Source: Mycobacterium leprae TN
GTDB lineage: Bacteria > Actinomycetota > Actinomycetes > Mycobacteriales > Mycobacteriaceae
Assembly: GCF_000195855.1 (NCBI RefSeq)
Contig: NC_002677.1
Location: 2,460,001 to 2,492,000 of the forward strand
Length of the DNA stretch: 32,000 nucleotides
Direction of reading: 5' to 3'
Shown: positions 12,087 through 22,848 of the stretch, piece by piece
Layout: each line of letters begins with the position of its first letter
Numbering within the stretch: position 1 is the stretch's first letter
Made by a program: the position numbers and the translations under genes
Notes under the pieces: generated by a model
The model's input: the letters and a program-made list of their open reading frames with translations, nothing else
What the model was told of the DNA's origin: nothing
Database searches by the model: none

Positions 12087-12761
12087 TCATCTGGCCTTTC
12101 CCGCAAACTGACGATGGGCTTGGTGCTTGATCTTAGGCATCCACCGCACCACCATCGTCATCTGCACCACATACAGCACGAATGCCCACAGGTACGCATA
12201 GGTACCCCAGATCAGAAACGCCCAACCGCAGGCCCCCAGAACACGGCTCCACAACGTGTCCCAAGTTCCTAGAAGAACGAATGGAAAGCCGACCATCAAG
12301 CTGAACGTCGCCGCCTTACCGATATAGGTCACCGGTAATGACAGCAGTCCGCGACTCCACAGCAACGGCAGCGTTGCGGTCAGTAGCACGTCACGTGCCA
12401 GTAGAGCGACGACAAACCACCACGGCACGATCCCGCTCAACGCCAACACGACGGGGATCGTCACCATGTACAGCCGATCGACAGCGGGGTCAAGCAGCAC
12501 ACCCAACCGCGAATACTGATCCAGCAGCCGGGCAATCTTGCCGTCGGCCCAGTCCGAGACACCGCTGAACACCAGAATCACCACCGCCCAGCCATCGGCG
12601 TGCATGACCAGCAGAACGTAGACAAACGCCGGGATCAGCGCCAGGCGGACAGCGCTGAGCAAATTGGGCACTGTCAGCACCCGATTGGGCGGACACACCG
12701 ACTCCATGAGCAGTGACCTTAGCCTGGCGATATGACGGTCCGGATAACGGGCCGAAAGCAA
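12087..12761 (-). CDS. pgsA2: CDP-alcohol phosphatidyltransferase (PgsA2-like)
   Basis: A 224-aa multi-TM ORF. The CDP-alcohol phosphatidyltransferase motif is D-W-A-D-G-K-I-A-R-x8-G-x3-D-x3-D (SDWADGKIARLLDQYSRLGVLLDPAVDRL). An internal start at 12707 (MESVCPPNR...) is possible. Confidence 0.85.
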   Translation of the reverse strand: MLSARYPDRHIARLRSLLMESVCPPNRVLTVPNLLSAVRLALIPAFVYVLLVMHADGWAVVILVFSGVSDWADGKIARLLDQYSRLGVLLDPAVDRLYMVTIPVVLALSGIVPWWFVVALLARDVLLTATLPLLWSRGLLSLPVTYIGKAATFSLMVGFPFVLLGTWDTLWSRVLGACGWAFLIWGTYAYLWAFVLYVVQMTMVVRWMPKIKHQAHRQFAGKAR

Positions 12762-15212: not shown

Positions 15213-16859
15213 TCAAGCCAGGTTGGACCGGCGAGGGTAGGCGACACTCGGATCGGTCAGCACATTCACGACCGACGGCAGACCGGTGACGAAAGCACGT
15301 TCGAGTGCAGGCCGAAGCTCACCGGGCACCGACACCAGCTCGCCGTGACCGCCGAGGGCACGAACCACCTCGTCGTAGCGAGTACCCGGGCGGAGTTCCG
15401 CTACCACCGAGTAGCCGTACAACGCTTCCATCGGGTGTTTCTCTAAGCCCCAGATCCCGTTGTTGCCGATCACCGACACGACGGGAACATTGTGCCGAAC
15501 CAGAGTGTCCCATTCCATGCCGCTGAAGCCAAACGCGCCGTCGCCCTGCAGCAGGACAACTTGACGGTTGGGCCGGGCGAGTTTAGCGGCCAGAGCGTAG
15601 CCAGGGCCCGAACCCAGGCAACCGAACGGCCCGCTGTCCAACCAGCAACCCGGTAGATAGCTGTCGATCACCCGGCCGGCATAAGACCCGAAATCACCGG
15701 CGTCGATCACGACAATCGCGTCGCGGTCCAGCAGCGACGCGAGCTCAGCGTACACCCGCATCGGGTGCAGCGGGAGCCGGTCGTCGTCCAGTTCAGCTTT
15801 CTCAAGGTCACGCGTGGCGGTCTCGGCCGTCCGCAGCGCGCGGATCCAGTCCTGACTGTCGGTCCCACCGACTCCAGCCAACGCCGAGAGAATAGCTGGC
15901 AAATCTCCGTAGAGCCCGGCCGCGACGGGTCGCGGATAGTCGCGATCGGGTTCAGCACGGTCCGCCACCACGAGCTGTGTTTGTGACCCGAACACCTTGC
16001 CGAAGCCCAGCCGGAAATCCATCGGCACCCCAACAACCAGTGCCACATCTGCCTCACCCAATGCTTTTCCCCGCGCCCGCGAGAAAGCCAACGGGTGGTC
16101 GGCGGGCACTACGCCGCGTGCCATTCCGTTCATCAGCACAGGGATCTGGCATTCCTCGGCTAGACGTAGTAGCGCGGCCTCGGCGTGCCCCCACCAGACG
16201 TTGGTCCCGGCCATGATCACCGGCCGGTGCGCCGCGGCTAACAGGCCGGCAGCCCGGTCCAGGGCTTCGGGGTTGGCAGCGGGAGCCACAGGCAAGTTGG
16301 CCAAAGCGCCAGGACCACCGCCAACGTCGTCAGCCATGGAAAACACATAGTCCATCGGGAAATCAACGAAACCCACTCCGGACGGGGCAACCACCGCGGC
16401 CTGCAATGCTTCGTCGACAAGCCGGCCGGCGGCATCCGCCGACTGTGCGGTGGCGGCGAAACGGGCTAGCGGAGCCACGAACGGCACGTGATCAATCTCC
16501 TGTAACGAGCCCATACCCCATCGCAGTGCGGGTGCTCGGCCGCCGAGCACTACCAGCGGCGACTGGTTCTGCTGCGCCGCCGCCATCGCGCTCATACCGT
16601 TGGTGACGCCCGGCCCCGCGGTTAGTACAGCCACACCTGGCTGCCTGGTCACTTTCGACCAACCCTCGGCGGCGAAGGCCGCTGTCTGCTCGTGGCGCGT
16701 GTCTATGAGCCTGATACTCTCGCTACGGCAACCGTCGTAAATGGAAAATAGATGCCCACCTGACAACGTAAAGACGGTGTCGACACCGCTGGCTTTGAGT
16801 CGACGTACGACGAGCCGGCCGGCGTGAATGCTGTGGGTCAGGACAGGGTCGGTGCTCAT
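15213..16859 (-). CDS. ilvG: ThDP-dependent acetolactate synthase large-subunit-like enzyme (Rv1820-like)
   Basis: A 548-aa ORF. The ThDP-binding motif is [30 protein letters not shown]. The N-terminal Pyr domain has [18 protein letters not shown]. Confidence 0.9.
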
Positions 16860-16952
16860 ATCAGCAGCCTATCCGCGACTTTCGGGTACCTTCGCCGAGA
16901 GATTTCTGTATTGAGGTGCTTTCAGCGCCTCAATCGCGAGGAGACATCAAAC

Positions 16953-18869
16953 GTGGAGTTAAGACCATTCTATCCATCTGTCAACTGGGGCTACGCGCTG
17001 CCAGACTCGTTGTGGTGGATCGCCAAGGCATGGGCGATCAGTGCCGCTTGCGTCGTTGTCTTGGTAATGCTCAGTTTTATCACCCGCTGGGGTCGCCAAT
17101 ACTGGCGGATTACCCGCGGCTATTTCATCGGACCGCAGTCGGTCGGGGTGTGGCTGATGCTAGCTGTGCTGCTGTTCTCGGTCGTCATCAGCGTGCGGTT
17201 GAACGTTTTGTTCAGCTACCAAAGCAAAGACTTGTATAACGCGCTGCAAGCAGCCTTCGAAGGCGCCGGCGCACAGAACGACCTGGTTAAACAGTCAGGT
17301 ATGCACGGCTTTTGGATGTCGCTCGGAATCTTCTCCATTTTGGCAGTCATATTCATTGCCCGCGTGATGGCCGACATTTATCTGACCCAGCGGTTCATCA
17401 TCGCCTGGCGAATGTGGCTTACCAACCACCTCACAACTGACTGGCTGGACCAGCGCGCCTATTACCGGGAACAATTCATCGACAATACGATCGACAACCC
17501 CGACCAACGTATCCAGCAAGACATCGATATCTTCACCGCCGGCGCCGGCGGCACCCCCAACGGTCCCTCCAACGGAACGGGCAGCACACTGTTGTTTGGG
17601 GCTGTCGAATCGGTGATATCGGTGATTTCGTTCACCGCGATCTTGTGGAACCTTTCCGGTCGGCTCGCCGTGTTTGAGTTCGAAATACCGCGCGCCATGT
17701 TCTGGATCGTCATTGTCTACGTGCTGTTAGCAACGATCATAACGTTCTGGATCGGCCGCCCATTAATCGGGCTGAACTTTGCCAACGAAAAACTCAACGC
17801 CGCCTTCCGCTATGCGTTAGTGCGGTTGCGCGACGCTGCCGAGGCGGTTGCATTTTATCGGGGTGAGGAGGCTGAACGGAAGCAATTGGAGCAGCGCTTC
17901 ACACCGATTATTGACAATTACCGCAGGTACGTCAGCCGCACTATAAGATTCCTAGGTTGGAACGCCTCGGTAAGCCAGACCATTGTTCCGCTACCGTGGA
18001 TTCTTCAGGCACCGCGGCTGTTCGCCGGGAAAATTAACTTGGGGGACGTCGGCCAAACCGCGACCGCATTCGGCAATATTCACGACTCGTTATCGTTCTT
18101 TCGCAACAATTATGCCGCATTTGCGGCTTTCCGGGCCGCAATCATCCGGTTGCATGGACTCGTCGTTGCAAATGCTCGCAGCCGGGAGTTGCCCCACGTA
18201 ACAGCTAAGTCGACGAACGATGGTACAGTTCATGTGGTCGCTGTCGAGGTGCGAACGTCGGCAGGCGAGCAGCTGATTGACCCGCTCGACCTGCAACTTA
18301 ATTGCGGTAGTTCACTGGTCATCACTGGGCGCTCCGGGGTAGGCAAGACCACAATGCTGCGCAGCCTGGCCGAATTGTGGCCATACGCTTCCGGGACCCT
18401 AAGCCGCCCCGACGGCAAGAACGAAACGATGTTCTTATCGCAGTTGCCCTATGTACCACTGGGCAACCTACGCGGCGTGGTGTGTTACCCAAATGCGCCC
18501 GCCGACATCCCTGAAGACACTGTGCGGGACACCCTAACGAAGGTAGCCCTCAACCCGCTGTGTGACCGGCTAGACGAAGAACGGGACTGGGCCAAGATAC
18601 TATCCCCAGGCGAGCAACAACGCATTGCCTTTGCCCGTATCCTGCTCACCAAACCAAAGGCAATATTCCTCGACGAAAGTACGTCCGCGCTTGACGAAGG
18701 GCTGGAATTCGCACTCTACCAAATGCTGCGAAGCGAACTGCCAGACTGCATCATCGTCAGCGTTAGCCATCGGCGCGCAGTCGAGCTGCTCCACGCACAA
18801 CAGCTGGAACTGCTTGGCGGCGGCCAGTGGCGACTGGGCCCAGTGGAAAAGGAGCCGCTGCATGTCTAG
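16953..18869 (+). CDS. bacA: BacA/SbmA-like fused TMD-NBD ABC transporter (Rv1819c-like)
   Basis: The ORF is open from 16824, but that start overlaps the divergent ilvG start. GTG 16953 ([13 protein letters not shown]...), with GAGGAG upstream, gives 638 aa and an orthologue-like N-terminus. Walker A is GRSGVGKTT, the signature is LSPGEQQR, and Walker B is [11 protein letters not shown]. Confidence 0.9.
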
Positions 18870-19079
18870 CTAGCGCGGTGCTACCGCACGCTAACAGGTA
18901 GCACCCTTGCAGGGTTAACGAGTACAGGTTCGCATGCCCGAGCTCAAATTCACGGGACGAAGTGTCCATGTAGAGCACATACGGACCGTGCTTTTCTCGC
19001 CGGCCAGAGGAAATCGCGGTCCGCCGGTGATTCGTGGGTGTGCAAACATGCAAGCCACGCCCGACAGGTTCGGGCATAG

Positions 19080-19560
19080 TCAGTCGCGTCGATCTTTCGT
19101 TACTTTCTTCACCTCAAACCATTTCTCGCACGCGGTAGGCAATTCAGGCGCTCTAGTGGTGGGTGGTTTTGAGGCGTTTAGGTGTGGTTGGTTGAGGTAA
19201 GTGGGCGGTGTATGTGGTTGCTGTCTTGGAGTTGCGCGATGGCGACCGGGGTCGGCTGGGGTGGTTGACGAGGGTGTTGTGGGTGCTGGTGGGGCAGGTG
19301 ACACGGGCGTGGATTGTGTGGTTGGTGTCCGATGGAGTGGCTAGATACTGATATCGCGGTTCGGGTACGCCGGGGACGGGACGTGCTTCGGTGATCGATG
19401 AGGTCATGGTGCTCGTAGAGACGTTGGTCGGCGATGTTATGCGAATCGGCCGTTCAGCGTCGGAGCGGCCCGTCACCGGAGCAGTTGATGGCTGTGGGGG
19501 ATTTCGTTTTCCTTGGTCGCGCGGATCTGGCATAAGTGGGGGCATCCAGTCGCATCGCGT
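19080..19560 (-). pseudogene. possible second IS630-type transposase C-terminal relic (very degenerate)
   Basis: Weak evidence only. The minus-strand frames give IRITSPTNVSTS...YLATPSDTNHTIHARVTCPTSTHNTLVN. This loosely parallels ICDNYANPQTP..SWLQDN..LHFTPTSCS*L of the clearer relic at 21170-21535. Low-complexity A+C-rich composition makes chance resemblance likely. Confidence 0.3.
19150..19340. other. extreme G+T-rich (plus strand) compositional block
   Basis: My hand count of 19151-19330 (180 nt) gives G 88, T 55, A 16, C 21. That is about 79% G+T on the plus strand. A milder skew continues to about 19560. Confidence 0.9.
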
Positions 19561-19799
19561 GAAGACCTTCAAGTTCGTTACCGACCCCGACGTGGGAGAC
19601 CAAACGGCGTGATGTGGTCGGGCTCGACCTGGATCCACGTGCGTCACGAAGTGCTGATGATTGGCATGGCAGTGAAGGTGAGAGATCTTCGCCGCCGGGC
19701 CTGTCGCAGCAGGAACGGTGAAGCGGGGGCACCTTGGCCTTGGGTGGCGTCGGGAAGGGGAGGAATCGTCCTAGGTCCTGCTTGGGTGTTGTGTGGCCA

Positions 19800-20886
19800 A
19801 CACGATTTATCGGGTTGGGGTCATCGTCGGTCGATCGTGGCCGCAGGTTTGATGACCTGTTCAATCTCGTGTGTGACCCGGCGAACATTGTTGGTGGCGT
19901 TTGACTGGGTCACGGGCAACTATGGGGCGAATACTGCTGGTGTGGACGCCCGGACCGGAGCCCATGTTGAGGAAATCGTCGAGGTAGCGGGTTGTTGGAC
20001 AATCTGCGGATCGAGTCGTTCAGGCTGCGTTGAAGCTGGTGTTGGAGCCTGTCGTCGAGGCCGCTTTCGAGCCGATCTCCCCTGGATTCCGCCCCCAAGC
20101 GGCGATCTCAGGGACACGATCGCCGAAATTCACCAATACAGCACTACAAGCTATCGGTGGGTGCTGTATGCAGACATTGAGGTGCGCTGTGACTCTATCT
20201 CACATTCTGCTCTGTTGGAGCGGATGCTATTGCCAGTCAAGGATAAACGCGTACTTGGTCCTGGTGAAGGCGTTTTCTAAGGCCGGTGTGCTCACCGAGT
20301 CTGGTGAGCACCAGAACACTCACACCGGAACGTCTCAGGGCAATATCTTGTCGCCGGTGCTGACCAACATCGCCTTGCCTGGGCTCGATGAGTATCGGAT
20401 GCAGCCATGGAAACCGTGCGGCTCGATGTCCACTGCTTACCTGCCTAGTCGGCGCCGCGTCACAGGCCTGCTGAGTACAACGCAGTCGTCCCGCGTAGCG
20501 GACGACTGCGTTGTACTCAGCACATGGCGACCAGACACGCCAGAGGCCTGCAAAACGAAATAAACTCGATGCTTACGCCTCTAGGTCTGCAGCTGTCGAC
20601 TGCAAAGACAAAGACCGCGCACTTCGGTAACTGGTATGGACTTTCGCGGCTTCCACACCGGGTGGACACCCAAGAAGGCAACGACCACGTGGGCATGTCT
20701 AGGACTTGTATCGCCGACCGGGCACGACGGTCGGTCAAAGCCAAGATCCGTGCCCTGGCAAACAGGAAATCACAGCGCAATCCGGGGGCCGTGCTGGCAC
20801 AGATCAACCATCGGTGGTTTCGAGCACTGTATCGCCGGAGATGGAAAGACATTCGCCGGCAGTTCACCACCTCCGAAAAACGGTGA
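19800..20886 (+). pseudogene. group II intron reverse transcriptase/maturase, frameshifted
   Basis: RT motifs are spread over all three frames. They include FDDLFNLVCDPANI.., AFDWVTGNYGANTAGVDARTGAHVEE, KLVLEPVVEAAFEPISPGFRP, IAEIHQYSTTSYRWVLYADIEVRCDSISHSALLERM.., KDKRVLGLVKAFSKAGVLTE, TGTSQGNILSPVLTNIAL and RVADDCVVL (the YADD box). LTPLGLQLSTAKTKTAHF and the maturase tail SVKAKIRALANRKSQ...INHRWFRALY are also present. The sequence contains multiple stops. Confidence 0.85.
20471..20520. repeat. perfect 21-bp inverted repeat with 8-nt loop (50-nt hairpin) inside the dead RT gene
   Basis: Read directly. CTGAGTACAACGCAGTCGTCC (20471-20491) is the exact reverse complement of GGACGACTGCGTTGTACTCAG (20500-20520). 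The loop is CGCGTAGC. The right arm encodes the RT ADDCVVLS box. Confidence 0.95.
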
Positions 20887-21019
20887 AAACCGATTGACGC
20901 AGAAGAGACCACCCTATTGAACCCGACCTCGATACCGGTCACCCGGTACCGCTACCAAATCACCACAATACCCAACCCTTGGACCAGTATTCCCACCGCC
21001 TAACGGTAGTGACCATGAA

Positions 21020-21053
21020 AAGCCCGGTGCGCAAAGACGCGCACACCAGGATC
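21020..21053 (+). ncRNA. group II intron domain V-like element (decayed)
   Basis: The 34-nt sequence AAGCCCGGTGCGCAAAGACGCGCACACCAGGATC folds on the canonical domain V template. The AGC triad is at nt 2-4. The lower helix is 2-33, 4-31, 5-30, 7-28, 8-27 and 9-26. The AC bulge is at nt 24-25. The upper helix is 10-23 through 13-20. The 4-nt loop AAGA sits at the GNRA position. 10 of 14 template pairs are intact. Four of the five deviations (nt 1, 14, 15, 29) are what G-to-A changes on this strand would produce. Confidence 0.7.
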
Positions 21054-21169
21054 GGCGACCAGTCTGGGAAACGGACCGAAAGTAATACACCCACACCGCG
21101 CCCCAGGCCTACTCAACCCGCGGCCGCGATTATGCTCTAGCGTCGACAATGAAGCCCCAGACCCAAGCA

Positions 21170-21535
21170 GCTGGATCACACCCAAACCGATTCTGCCACT
21201 ACCTTCAAACTCGCCACCAAAACACACCCACACATACAGGCATGCCCCAATCTGCGACAACTACGCCAACCCACAAACCCCCAGCAGCCGATCCTGGCTA
21301 CAGGATAACCAGCAAGCCACACTGCACTTCACACCGACAAGCTGCTCATAGCTGACACATAACCAAAATCTTCTTCACCACCATCACCCGCCACAACACG
21401 TTCACCGATATCAACAACCTCGAAACCGCGATCCCCACCTACAACGAACACACCACACCGTTCACCTGAACCCAGACCGCAGACACCCCCTCAACAAAAT
21501 CAAACGTTAAAACAATCACCAACACACAACACTAG
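21170..21535 (+). pseudogene. IS630-family (DDE) transposase C-terminal relic
   Basis: One frame reads ICDNYANPQTPSSRSWLQDNQQATLHFTPTSCS*L. This fits the pattern DNYxxHxTPxVxxWLxxxPxxxxHFTPTSxSWLN. After a +1 shift it reads IFFTTITRHNTFTDINNLETAIPTYNEHTTPFT*TQTAD, which fits FFxxLTRRxxRRGxFxSxxDLExAIxxYxxxHNxxxxPFxWTxTAD. Both expected Trp positions are now stops (TAG 21349-21351, TGA 21467-21469). The family consensus is from memory. Confidence 0.6.
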
Positions 21536-21543
21536 CGAACACA

Positions 21544-22848
21544 TCAGACCTGTACGGGCAGTGCCGACATTCCGCGCATTGCCACATTTGGCTTATAGAC
21601 CAATTCACCGGCCAGCTGTACCTGTGGGAAACGCGCACTGATCGCAGATAATGTGACAGTCGCTTCCAACCGAGCCAATGCCGCTCCTAGGCAAAAATGT
21701 GAGCCGACGGCAAATGCCAAATGTCGTGAGCTGGGACGGTCGGGGTCAAATTCATCGGGGCGTGAGTAAACCGCTGGATCGCGATTGGCGGCGGCAAGCA
21801 ACAAAACCATTGTATCACCCTCGGTTAAAGTTGTCTGACCGATCGTCATGTCCTTAGCAGCTACCCGACCGATTAGATGGATTGCTGGATCATAACGAAG
21901 CGTCTCCTCAACCACCAGCGGCGCGCGCTGCGGGTTGCTACTTAGCGCTTTCCACTGCGACGGGTTGCGTAACATCGCCAGGACCGCATTGGCAATCAGA
22001 TTCACCGTGGTCTCATGACCAGCAACGAGCAACAGACCGCACGTTGCGATGATCTCTTCCTCGGTCAGCTGATCACCCGACTCGTCCAACTCAATCAGCC
22101 TGGATATCAGATCCTCACCGGGTGTACCGCGTCGACATTTAACTAGCTGCTCCAAGTAATCCCGCAACCACACACCAGCCCGCAGCCGCTCTTCAGTGGC
22201 CTCCGGCGGTTCACCGGTAATGGTAATGAACGGGTCGACTGACTGCACCAATAGTGCTGAGACGCGACCGAACTCCGGCGCGTCTTCGTACGGCACACCC
22301 AGCAGCCGACAAATCACAGCCACCGCAAGCGGAAAGGCTAGGTCAGCAATGACGTCAAACTGGCCAGCCGCGGCACCCTTATCCAGCAGGGAATCCACCA
22401 GCGCAGCAATATCACCTTCCAGCGCCTGAACGACTTTCGGTGCGAACGCCTTGCTGACAAGCTTGCGTAACCGGGTATGATCTGGTGGATCGAGAAACAT
22501 AAACGACGAGGCATAGAACGGTCGCGGTTCTGCACCAGCAGCAATGGCCTGCTGCGCTAGTGTCGCCTTGAGCCGATCGCTGGCCGACAACGGATGGCGC
22601 AATGCCTCGTCGCAGTCAGAAAACGACGAGAACACTGTCAACGGCATACCCGGTAGCTGCATCGGCCCGTAGTCAATTAACGCGCGATAAACCGGAAACG
22701 GATCCGCCCGGGTGCCCGGGTCAATCAAGCGTAGCAACAGCATTTGTGCCTCAACAAGCGATGGCGGGTTCGTTCCCATCGGTCGATTATGACTCAGGTA
22801 CTCGATAAATGCATACACGCATGTACGAGTTGGTACGCACGTCCGCAT
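21544..22848 (-). CDS. cytochrome P450 monooxygenase (I believe this is the M. leprae CYP164A1 gene)
   Basis: An intact 434-aa ORF. The I-helix is LLVAGHETT and the K-helix ExxR is EETLRY. The heme-thiolate loop is FAVGSHFCLGAALAR. An alternative start at 22779 (MGTNPPS...) is possible. Confidence 0.9.
   Translation of the reverse strand: MRTCVPTRTCVYAFIEYLSHNRPMGTNPPSLVEAQMLLLRLIDPGTRADPFPVYRALIDYGPMQLPGMPLTVFSSFSDCDEALRHPLSASDRLKATLAQQAIAAGAEPRPFYASSFMFLDPPDHTRLRKLVSKAFAPKVVQALEGDIAALVDSLLDKGAAAGQFDVIADLAFPLAVAVICRLLGVPYEDAPEFGRVSALLVQSVDPFITITGEPPEATEERLRAGVWLRDYLEQLVKCRRGTPGEDLISRLIELDESGDQLTEEEIIATCGLLLVAGHETTVNLIANAVLAMLRNPSQWKALSSNPQRAPLVVEETLRYDPAIHLIGRVAAKDMTIGQTTLTEGDTMVLLLAAANRDPAVYSRPDEFDPDRPSSRHLAFAVGSHFCLGAALARLEATVTLSAISARFPQVQLAGELVYKPNVAMRGMSALPVQV

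Follow-up and report, generated by a model that had tools for sequence, protein, structure and literature searches.

The window analysed here (the whole stretch of Mycobacterium leprae DNA, 32,000 nt) contains two blocks of opposite strand composition between a bacA-type ABC transporter gene and an intact cytochrome P450 gene (Table 1). The base counts bore out the composition estimated in the initial annotation of this DNA, ~79% G+T on the left and ~76% A+C on the right: the plus strand at 19151-19330 consists of A 8.9, C 11.7, G 48.9 and T 30.6% (G+T, 79.4%), and that at 21181-21540 of A 35.3, C 41.1, G 10.8 and T 12.8% (A+C, 76.4%). The keto (G+T) fraction of the 32-kb window has a mean of 0.473, with a standard deviation of 0.058 in 180-nt windows and 0.049 in 360-nt windows, and both blocks lie ~5 SD off this mean. 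Within the 32 kb, values above 0.68 or below 0.32 were found in these two blocks only, plus one borderline window at 12141. The neighbours are balanced, as had been judged by eye: the keto fraction is 0.495 in the 283-nt spacer between bacA and the insertion sequence (IS) described below (18870-19152), and 0.48 in the P450 gene, which shows 97% identity in M. lepromatosis and 58-67% in other mycobacteria. The keto fraction is graded from left to right, being 0.79 at 19150-19300, 0.60-0.66 up to ~20000, ~0.5 at 20050-20450, 0.30-0.38 at 20850-21150 and 0.19-0.26 at 21150-21500, and it returns abruptly to ~0.49 in the left and right flanks outside the IS ends.

Table 1. Features of the bacA-P450 interval (positions in the window)
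Feature	Position	Strand	Basis or remark
bacA-type ABC transporter gene, left neighbour	16824..18869	+	ORF; Pfam SbmA_BacA, same gene in L092
Complete LEPREP unit: left CTAG to right CTAG, with the 17-nt carried flank	19153..21552	+	shared by M. leprae copies
IS630 left arm, G+T-rich block	19153..19638	+	aligned to intact elements L086, L089
CTAG target, left	19153-56	+	alignment of ends to L086, L089
Left inverted repeat and 5' UTR	~19154-19209	+	alignment to L086, L089
Relic transposase start codon	~19212	+	alignment to L086, L089
Group II intron relic	19639..21118	+	RT translation match; alignment to intact intron L081
Intron 5' GTGCG	19639	+	aligned with 5' end of L081 intron
RT/maturase relic	~19845-20990	+	composite translation match
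Perfect 23-nt inverted repeat, 8-nt loop	20469..20522		inside RT relic
YADD relic	20498-20509	+	inside RT/maturase relic
Intron domains V/VI	21017-21117	+	base-by-base alignment to RF00029 match of L081
IS630 right arm, A+C-rich block	21119..21535	+	relic translation match to IS630/DDE_3; alignments
Trp-to-stop changes, right arm	TAG 21349-51, TGA 21467-69	+	alignment to intact relatives
Right inverted repeat, then CTAG (IS end), right arm	CTAG 21532-21535	+	alignment
Native flank: 8-nt spacer, P450 stop codon and last two codons	21536..21552	+	shared; CGAACACATCAGACCTG
Cytochrome P450 gene, intact, right neighbour	21544..22848	-	ORF; conserved in mycobacteria

Alignment to two intact relatives, L086 and L089, showed the skewed blocks to be the outer arms of a single IS630-family element, dead and bounded by CTAG at both ends, with its sense on the plus strand. 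In codon-by-codon alignments both arms match the transposases of these relatives (DDE_3 with an N-terminal HTH), and the ends next to the two CTAG motifs align to their TAGTGTCGCGTG... inverted repeats. The left arm, with a keto fraction of 0.67 overall and 0.79 in its first 180 nt, codes for the relic N-terminal HTH part as far as ..VVGLDLDP. The right arm (keto fraction, 0.26) codes for the relic C-terminal DDE_3 half, from which ~135 nt have been deleted after ..RTQP, and its relic translation matched IS630/DDE_3 proteins (PF13358, E=7.5e-19). The transposase frame is broken by stops, frameshifts and the ~135-nt deletion, and judged by this reading frame the copy is a relic and not an active member of the family. 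As the gene is destroyed, Pfam detected no transposase domain in the raw six-frame translations, only a weak RVT_1 match. Alignments of the left block to L083 and L085 could not be relied on, and the closer L086 and L089 were used in their place; in these two the inverted repeats are ~40 nt long, ~80-90% alike and fill most of the 54-nt leader. The left repeat is itself rich in G+T and the right one in A+C.

The comparison also showed the IS630 transposase gene to be interrupted by a putative group II intron, now dead as well. The composite translation of its RT relic matched group II intron RT/maturases (PF00078 + PF08388, RVT_1 and GIIM; E=4.5e-125) in a broken reading frame, and RVT_1 on the raw frame gave a weak match (E=1.6e-4). 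L081, an intact homologue from soil, has this intron too, in the same codon context of IS630, and the alignments placed the entry point at the usual homing site of the IS630 family, after VVGLYL(D/N)P. The intron relic has internal deletions as compared with both M. lepromatosis and L081. Domain V was located by alignment to the intact intron, in which RF00029 lies at 2170-2268; the Rfam search of 18500-22000 at E<=1 returned no match, because G>A changes break the domain V helix. The deviations in domain V and the two Trp-to-stop changes are of the G>A type, in accordance with the initial annotation. That annotation had also taken the right block to span unrelated elements and to end at the P450 stop codon (21544-21546), and had favoured a regional process over element composition. 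We found instead that domain V and the IS630 relic belong to one composite repeat, that the two blocks are arms of one element, and that both the IS and the skew stop at the CTAG ends. The 23-nt palindrome within the RT relic is present in all M. leprae copies and absent from M. lepromatosis; this distribution marks it as a short inverted duplication that belongs to the M. leprae lineage alone, and it was rejected as an ancient centre of the skew on the ground of its absence from M. lepromatosis.

Sequence identity further showed that the span 19153-21552 corresponds to a full copy of the known dispersed repeat LEPREP (~2.4 kb). Copies L091, L093, L094, L096 and L098 are 99.9-100% identical to 19152/3-21552, copy L095 stops at 21535 and copy L090 is truncated at 21258; at least four separate M. 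leprae loci share 99.9-100% identity across 2383-2401 nt. These copies, reached via a 120-aa relic ORF (20524-20886; seven of the ten relic ORFs had no entry in the protein collection), sit beside different neighbour genes. The 17-nt flank at the right end is carried along in other LEPREP copies, and its final P450 codons are part of the native gene, because P450 orthologues finish ..V-x-V*. The carried flank marks the bacA-P450 copy as their source, and we identify it as the source of further copies in both leprosy bacilli. The orthologous M. lepromatosis locus (L001) has the coordinates of LPMREP_05, and the LPMREP core sequence starts at the orthologous TAGTGG (PMC9248898 Table S3B). The orthologous copy is 79-92% identical, depending on the segment, in agreement with what is expected of an LPMREP counterpart (~79-83% identity and a group II intron maturase pseudogene); it carries the skew pattern as well, in the comparison that the initial annotation had proposed. 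The element shares with LEPREP and LPMREP the length of ~2.4 kb, the multiple near-identical copies, the group II intron maturase pseudogene and the first base of the LPMREP core, and the available parts of the descriptions of these repeats contain no IS630 host, CTAG ends, carried P450 flank or mirrored skew. Searches of the literature turned up no account of hypermutation or internal skew for either LEPREP or IS630; PMC3971601 treats only IS orientation relative to replication.

To polarise the substitutions in the relic, we used L086 and L089. In the left arm, the favoured changes were C>T at 31/99 (31%) and A>G at 16/67 (24%), as compared with G>A at 11/139 (8%) and T>C at 2/72 (3%) in reverse, and in the right arm they were G>A at 34/80 (42%) and T>C at 13/57 (23%), as compared with C>T at 5/128 (4%) and A>G at 3/87 (3%) (Fisher p = 4e-6, 2e-4, 4e-12 and 6e-4), counts in which some sites may be misassigned or misaligned, chiefly in the low-complexity left 100 nt, as the outgroups are ~50-75% identical. 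T>G changes in the left arm (13/72) may in part reflect alignment noise. Inside the intron, 31 C>T were set against 18 G>A in the left third, and 45 G>A against 17 C>T in the right third. These counts showed the skew to be made, as far as polarisation tells, by amino-to-keto transitions on the 5' half of each strand, that is, by C>T and A>G on the plus strand in the left arm and on the minus strand in the right arm, which agrees with the strand-specific mutation, flipping in polarity across the RT relic, that had been proposed from the letters. The changes affect all three codon positions. The strand bias was accompanied by no dinucleotide context of C>T, which occurred at 20-35% (left) and 30-59% (right) of targets across all 5' and 3' contexts. 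Deaminase-type hypermutation, whether APOBEC-like or DddA/SsdA-like, was rejected, as the expected context was not found and A>G was affected too. A>G was nearly as frequent as C>T, which is unexpected under simple hydrolytic deamination and counts against the mechanism proposed below. Among M. leprae- or M. lepromatosis-specific changes in the orthologous copy, 28 were favoured and 10 unfavoured in the left arm, and 20 and 8, respectively, in the right arm.

We found the same polarity in intact IS630 relatives. The keto fraction at 4-fold sites fell along the gene in 81 such elements, which are mutually related and hence not independent samples (0.71, 0.67, 0.51, 0.42 and 0.27), and was flat in 55 P450 control genes (0.55-0.56). 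The third-position keto fraction by quarter fell in 79/79 intact ORFs (0.68, 0.59, 0.41 and 0.31) and dropped by decile from 0.77 to 0.26, with 0.49 and 0.52 in the element flanks; first and second codon positions shifted too (0.56/0.54 to 0.41/0.48), and silent-site G/(G+C) went from 0.71 to 0.25. The gradient is roughly linear and symmetric, neutral near the element centre and absent from the flanks, and is more extreme at the 3' end of the gene than at the 5' end. When D was defined as the third-position keto fraction of the first gene quarter minus that of the last, 653 ordinary mycobacterial ORFs showed a mean of 0.015 (sd 0.085), and the top outlier was another IS630-family gene. Proteobacterial or Streptomyces IS630 relatives displayed a weaker gradient in 7/8 cases. 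No such gradient was found in IS1, IS2, IS3, IS5, IS30 and IS186 of E. coli, each represented by a single sequence, or in an Arthrobacter rve transposase. The comparison thus showed the relic skew to be an extreme form of the bias that intact relatives carry at silent sites. Free of selection on the protein, all three codon positions of the relic have drifted to the silent-site composition of live copies. The initial annotation had set intrinsic composition aside; intact homologues nevertheless have the same G+T-rich 5' half and A+C-rich 3' half, most strongly at silent sites, which is an outcome that the annotation itself had named as contradicting its regional reading.

We consider it somewhat better than an even chance that the locus holds a dead IS630/intron LEPREP copy bearing a family-wide mirrored gradient that arose from end-inward synthesis or single-strand exposure. 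The polarity, symmetry and boundaries of the skew point to transposition-linked DNA synthesis or single-strand exposure, inward from both ends, as the most likely mechanism. Such synthesis or exposure would begin at both element-target junctions and proceed inward, and would recur with every round of copying or donor-site restoration; candidate routes are replicative resolution of strand-transfer intermediates and two-ended gap repair. The 5' half of each strand would be the part that is repeatedly exposed or newly made, and it would gain T for C and G for A by G.T/T.G mispairs or by deamination of single-stranded DNA. The element would then resemble a miniature replichore pair, with origins at its ends and a terminus in its middle. 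The sharp CTAG boundaries, the linear symmetric gradient and the continuing lineage-specific asymmetry favour an element-bound, end-inward process, for which the role of the bacA-P450 copy as a source of others was also counted. IS630/Tc1-mariner elements are generally described as cut-and-paste, which counts against the mechanism, as does the lack of a gradient in IS4/IS5-type cut-and-paste elements (single E. coli sequences). A further objection is that a dead, non-autonomous copy would have had to be copied or processed after the loss of its transposase, which requires a helper element, now gone from M. leprae.

The strongest alternative, although an unlikely one in our estimation, is convergent transcription within the element. 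A promoter in the left repeat would drive the transposase and its near-copy in the right repeat an antisense transcript, and the strand left untranscribed by each promoter (plus on the left, minus on the right) would be exposed, perhaps in R-loops that its increasing G content promotes, and gain C>T and A>G in situ. Such a process would be confined to the element, would act as a mirror image on its two halves and would depend neither on neighbours nor on mobility; it fits the ongoing asymmetry in the stationary orthologous copy and the pattern in intact elements, and the similar ~40-nt inverted repeats of L086 and L089 that fill most of the leader are in keeping with it. However, the sense transcript crosses the whole gene, and a centre-symmetric gradient that is more extreme at the 3' end would have to be finely tuned. 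A scan of both ends of L089 and of the relic, weak for mycobacteria, detected no sigma-70-like promoter; the silent-site G/(G+C) range lies far beyond ordinary genes, as represented by the 653 ORFs, and no gradient is seen in other IS families whose ends contain promoters. Much less probable is a functional or compositional origin, in which the skew follows from the amino-acid content of HTH versus DDE, or from selection for a G/U-rich 5' half that pairs with an A/C-rich 3' half in the transcript or in single-stranded DNA. The shift at first and second codon positions and the composition of the inverted repeats would accord with this, but third positions and 4-fold sites shift the most, and the relic, with neither protein nor obvious function, is more extreme and changed at all three codon positions; the inverted matches between the arms are short, of low complexity and 73-79% identical.

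The explanations put forward in the initial annotation fared worse still. We regard it as barely credible that the ancestor of the leprosy bacilli underwent a single local burst of hypermutation, in which 5'-to-3' resection from a central break or structure exposed tails to deamination, either chemical or by a DNA deaminase. The predicted polarity of resection away from a central break is right and the load is very high (23-42% of target bases), but the gradient is wrong: the skew grows from a minimum near the centre to a maximum at the far ends, and it stops exactly at the IS ends, leaving the flanks free, where resection would not stop. Moreover, the palindrome is M. leprae-specific, the changes have no dinucleotide context, intact relatives elsewhere show the pattern at silent sites and lineage-specific changes are still biased; a mutation cluster from a resected break was accordingly rejected. 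Equally remote is read-through transcription from the convergent bacA and P450 genes into neutral DNA. The right arm does lie directly 3' of P450, with a polarity that fits a non-transcribed minus strand, but no skew is present in the 283-nt spacer that separates bacA from the IS, and the gradient occurs, with unskewed flanks, in intact IS630 elements at 81 unrelated loci. Identical LEPREP copies beside unrelated neighbours also speak against it, a weak point alone, since these are recent copies of the bacA-P450 copy. Two inverted copies of one skewed element, also suggested, were rejected: the arms lie in direct order within one element, and an inverted-repeat search between the blocks found only the short low-complexity matches mentioned above.

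The end-inward reading can be set beside known systems. Chromosomal replication skew, an excess of G over C and T over A on the leading strand that switches at origin and terminus, likewise gives a keto excess on the strand running 5' to 3' along presumed synthesis and a change of sign at a central meeting point. The present skew differs in spanning 1-2.4 kb and not megabases, in its far higher amplitude (G/(G+C), 0.71 to 0.25) and in following a mobile element instead of the replichore of the host. In the heavy-strand gradient of vertebrate mitochondria, C>T and A>G rise with single-stranded time during strand-displacement replication; the two transitions on one strand are identical to those in IS630 and also roughly linear with position, but that gradient has a single polarity round the circle, whereas two opposed gradients meet in mid-element in IS630. 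To our knowledge, no strand-displacement replication has been described for IS630. Kataegis-type clusters at resected breaks or in break-induced replication share a switch of the mutated strand on either side of a point; they are single events, densest beside the break and usually limited to C in a deaminase or alkylation context, whereas changes in the relic are densest at the far ends, hit C and A, and are context-free, cumulative and family-wide. Fungal RIP and retroelement G>A hypermutation similarly place a heavy, inactivating transition load on a mobile or repeated element only. RIP, however, is C>T only, in a CpA context and in duplicated DNA, and hypermutation of retroviruses shows a single polarity in an APOBEC context; neither yields a mirrored gradient that is present in functional copies too.

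These data remove an apparent mystery of locus-specific hypermutation in the leprosy genome and give LEPREP a concrete origin in an IS630 element and a group II intron. They also show that an extreme local skew in a degraded genome can be the inherited signature of an element and need not reflect local damage. The mirrored silent-site skew of one IS family may be a sequence read-out of a strand-specific step in its life cycle, and bears on donor-site restoration or element replication. As a tentative extension, in which we place rather less than even confidence, IS630-family elements in general might carry a linear, replichore-like asymmetry, keto-rich in the 5' half and amino-rich in the 3' half, from repeated end-inward synthesis or exposure, bounded by their inverted repeats. 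If so, these supposedly simple cut-and-paste elements would be regularly resynthesised from both ends, and the gradient could reveal the transposition history and mechanism of an element from its sequence alone. The same process may have shaped the RLEP, REPLEP and LEPRPT repeat families as well, whose published M. lepromatosis cores all start with G+T-rich DNA.

A base count over the left block (19151-19330) gave 79.4% G+T (G 48.9, T 30.6, A 8.9 and C 11.7%), and the right block (21181-21540) contained 76.4% A+C, in agreement with the hand counts of the initial annotation. The mean keto (G+T) fraction of the window was 0.473, with a standard deviation of 0.058 in 180-nt windows and 0.049 in 360-nt windows, and across the 32 kb only the two blocks and one borderline window at 12141 exceeded 0.68 or fell below 0.32. 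In a 100-nt profile, the left edge had a keto fraction of 0.79; values of 0.60-0.66 followed as far as about 20000, then about 0.5 over 20050-20450 and 0.30-0.38 over 20850-21150, down to 0.19-0.26 on the right edge, with an abrupt return to about 0.49 in both flanks. This shows that the skew across the element is graded, rather than confined to two isolated blocks.

The translation of the right block corresponded to the C-terminal half of an IS630/DDE_3 transposase (E=7.5e-19 against PF13358 proteins), and a composite translation of the middle region to a group II intron RT/maturase (E=4.5e-125); on the raw frame of the middle region, Pfam RVT_1 matched weakly. The best intact homologue of the intron, on soil contig L081, lies inside an IS630 transposase gene. 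Positions 1-86 of L081 encode a 29-residue peptide followed by GTGCGCC, and the same peptide is encoded by 19551-19638 of the window, followed by GTGCGTC at 19639. An Rfam search of the window itself gave no match; domains V/VI of L081 are bona fide, as matched by RF00029, and window 21017-21117 aligns with them base by base. The left block aligned to the left inverted repeat, the 54-nt leader and the N-terminal HTH coding region of L086 (a Mycobacterium MAG) and L089, the closest full-length intact IS630 relatives among those retrieved (ends TAGTGTCGCGTG...CGCGACACTA, preceded by C and followed by G). The alignments of both blocks and the intron context in L081 show a single IS630 element split by the intron, with the skewed blocks as its two arms. 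This element is the already named dispersed M. leprae repeat LEPREP, of which copies elsewhere are 99.9-100% identical to window 19152/3-21552.

Coordinates of the element and its intron (window positions)
Feature	Position	Limits	Remark
IS630 element	19153-21535	CTAG to CTAG	alignment to intact relatives
Group II intron	19639-21118		splits the IS630 element at its middle

The skew had initially been attributed to a regional process rather than to intrinsic composition of the element. The intact homologues contradict this: L086 and L089 bear the same gradient, with a keto fraction of 0.57-0.60 near the 5' end and 0.31-0.35 near the 3' end; the third positions of codons shift most (from 0.58-0.60 to 0.22-0.23), and the DNA flanking intact elements is unskewed (0.49 upstream and 0.52 downstream). 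A metagenome scan added 80 further IS630 loci. Among the intact ORFs, which are related to one another by descent, the third-position keto fraction by quarter fell in 79 of 79 (0.68, 0.59, 0.41 and 0.31); from the first to the last quarter, the GC3 skew went from +0.35 to -0.38 and the TA3 skew from +0.46 to -0.43, and by decile the drop in keto was nearly linear, from 0.77 to 0.26. At 4-fold degenerate sites, the keto fraction by fifth was 0.71, 0.67, 0.51, 0.42 and 0.27, against a flat 0.55-0.56 in 55 mycobacterial P450 genes used as a control. Third-position keto in the first quarter of a gene minus that in the last averaged 0.015 (sd 0.085) when about 1.6 Mb of mycobacterial DNA was surveyed (653 ordinary long ORFs), and the top outlier was a second, distinct IS630-family gene (DDE_3). 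The second-strongest outlier was a REP13E12-type gene (DUF222 + HNH; contig L074, 11709-13076), in which the third-position keto fraction goes from 0.68 to 0.37. Of eight further IS630 relatives, from Proteobacteria and Streptomyces plasmids, seven had the gradient in a weaker form, whereas none was seen in E. coli IS1, IS2, IS3, IS5, IS30 and IS186 or an Arthrobacter rve transposase, each represented by one sequence. At their two ends, live elements have silent-site values (0.77 and 0.26) that agree with the bulk keto fractions in LEPREP (0.79 for the left block and 0.24 for the right); the relic is therefore the product of the mutational bias of the family once selection on the protein had gone. 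Asymmetric DNA metabolism is known to leave the two strands with unequal composition; here such an asymmetry is seen at the scale of one mobile element, and in open-access full text we found no description of a mirrored skew inside elements of the IS630 or other IS families.

Substitutions in the arms were polarised with sites identical in L086 and L089 as the ancestral proxy, these outgroups being distant (about 50-75% identity). The left arm showed C>T at 31 of 99 sites and A>G at 16/67, against 11/139 for G>A and 2/72 for T>C; in the right arm, the excess was in G>A (34/80) and T>C (13/57), with C>T at 5/128 and A>G at 3/87 (Fisher p for the four contrasts, 4e-6, 2e-4, 4e-12 and 6e-4). In a stricter right-arm set, comprising sites where three more distant homologues agree, the favoured changes numbered 29/68 and 11/52 versus 3/93 and 1/67. 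Compared with L081, the left third of the intron had 31 C>T and 18 G>A changes, and the right third 45 G>A and 17 C>T. The proposal of strand-biased substitutions flipping between the two sides was thus borne out by the counts in both arms. Substitutions fell on all three codon positions and had no 5' or 3' neighbour preference in the arms, which speaks for neutral accumulation rather than the action of a context-specific deaminase. The orthologous M. lepromatosis locus (L001), a comparison proposed in the initial annotation, is colinear and likewise shows the two blocks, with keto fractions of 0.80 and 0.26. The majority of changes are common to the two species; species-private transitions comprised 28 favoured versus 10 unfavoured in the left arm and 20 versus 8 in the right.

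Seven features are demanded of any explanation: amino-to-keto transitions of both kinds in the 5' half of each strand; a roughly linear gradient, neutral at the centre of the element; inverted repeats as sharp limits; occurrence in active copies whose loci are unrelated; a build-up that has gone on in a copy kept at a single locus since before the two species diverged; absence of sequence context; and, among the sampled elements, restriction to the IS630 type. We infer that most of these could be accounted for if DNA synthesis or single-strand exposure started at both element-target junctions and moved inward to a variable meeting point. Forks or repair synthesis might be primed from flanking 3' ends in a strand-transfer intermediate, or, alternatively, two-ended, sister-templated gap repair might occur at the donor site. 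On the newly made or displaced strand, C would give way to T and A to G, through either G.T/T.G mispairing or deamination while single-stranded. The same logic applies to chromosomal leading-strand skew and the mitochondrial heavy-strand gradient, here at the 1-2 kb scale of an IS630 element. Actinobacteria are not known to possess MutS/MutL, and we speculate that this may explain the bigger amplitude in that group.

The main rival, which we consider unlikely, is convergent transcription within the element from promoters in both inverted repeats. It explains the sharp limits, the presence in active copies at unrelated loci and the continued accumulation in a fixed copy, but does not readily give the symmetry or the stronger skew at the 3' end, and a weak test for promoter-like sites found none. 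The three explanations offered initially fare worse. A central break agrees with the polarity but not with the gradient and boundaries; read-through from the bacA-type gene and the minus-strand P450 gene fails on the unskewed 283-nt spacer after bacA and on the intact-element data; and two inverted copies of one skewed element are at odds with the anatomy described here.

A protein lookup placed the 120-aa ORF of the relic on 63 contigs. Other M. leprae LEPREP loci lie at 1.10 Mb and 2.21 Mb in Br4923 and on differently flanked Logan contigs. One copy ends at CTAG (2383 nt), and in that at about 2.21 Mb (L090, 4236-5900) an IS1634/IS4-like transposase relic cuts the repeat off at the equivalent of window position 21258. 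The keto fraction of the latter relic itself runs from 0.66 to about 0.35, and the same G+T-rich start follows the LEPREP end on another LEPREP contig, L096. In M. lepromatosis, LPMREP_05, a copy of the counterpart repeat, is listed exactly at the orthologous place, and the LPMREP core begins with the orthologous TAGTGG (PMC9248898). The right ends of three M. leprae copies (L091, L093 and L096) carry 17 nt past the right CTAG, identical to window 21536-21552, where they form the native spacer together with the stop codon and two final codons of the P450 gene; the window copy is therefore the source of those copies. As annotated, LPMREP_05 extends 121 nt into the 3' end of the P450 gene (L001, 11188-11308), and other LPMREP copies are equally long. 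The sequences suggest independent dispersal in each species from an orthologous master copy, with a right boundary outside the inverted repeat. None of the open-access papers examined mentions the mirrored skew, the P450 flank carried by LEPREP copies, the CTAG ends or the nature of LEPREP as an IS630 element containing a group II intron. The M. lepromatosis cores of RLPM, LPMREP, REPLPM and LPMRPT are strongly G+T-rich over their first 50-200 nt (0.68-0.88 per 50 nt; PMC9248898 Table S3B). Because a mirrored skew looks alike on either strand, the G+T-rich starts of all four hint that other leprosy-bacillus repeats may share the pattern, as judged from the core 5' ends alone.

The master copies of the two species decayed independently. 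In M. leprae LEPREP, losses of about 200, 66 and 90 nt at 19842, 19994 and 20802 have removed intron stretches still present in M. lepromatosis and in L081; conversely, about 17-45 nt are missing elsewhere from the M. lepromatosis copy. The YADD relic of the RT is covered by a perfect inverted repeat (20469-20522; 23 nt, loop of 8 nt) that looks like a small template-switch inverted duplication. This repeat occurs in all M. leprae LEPREP copies and is absent from the M. lepromatosis locus, and is therefore a later M. leprae event; as M. lepromatosis has both blocks without it, we rejected it as the centre of the skew process. Soil contig L082 (335-3393) contains two tandem group II intron copies, of which at least one seems 5'-truncated or nested, since the second RT ORF begins only about 55 nt past domain VI of the first. 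In several metagenomic or genomic relatives within this IS630 clade (L083, L084 and L085), the transposase is split in two ORFs at similar places, after ..THDYI and near ..WTK, which may reflect decay or programmed frameshifts.
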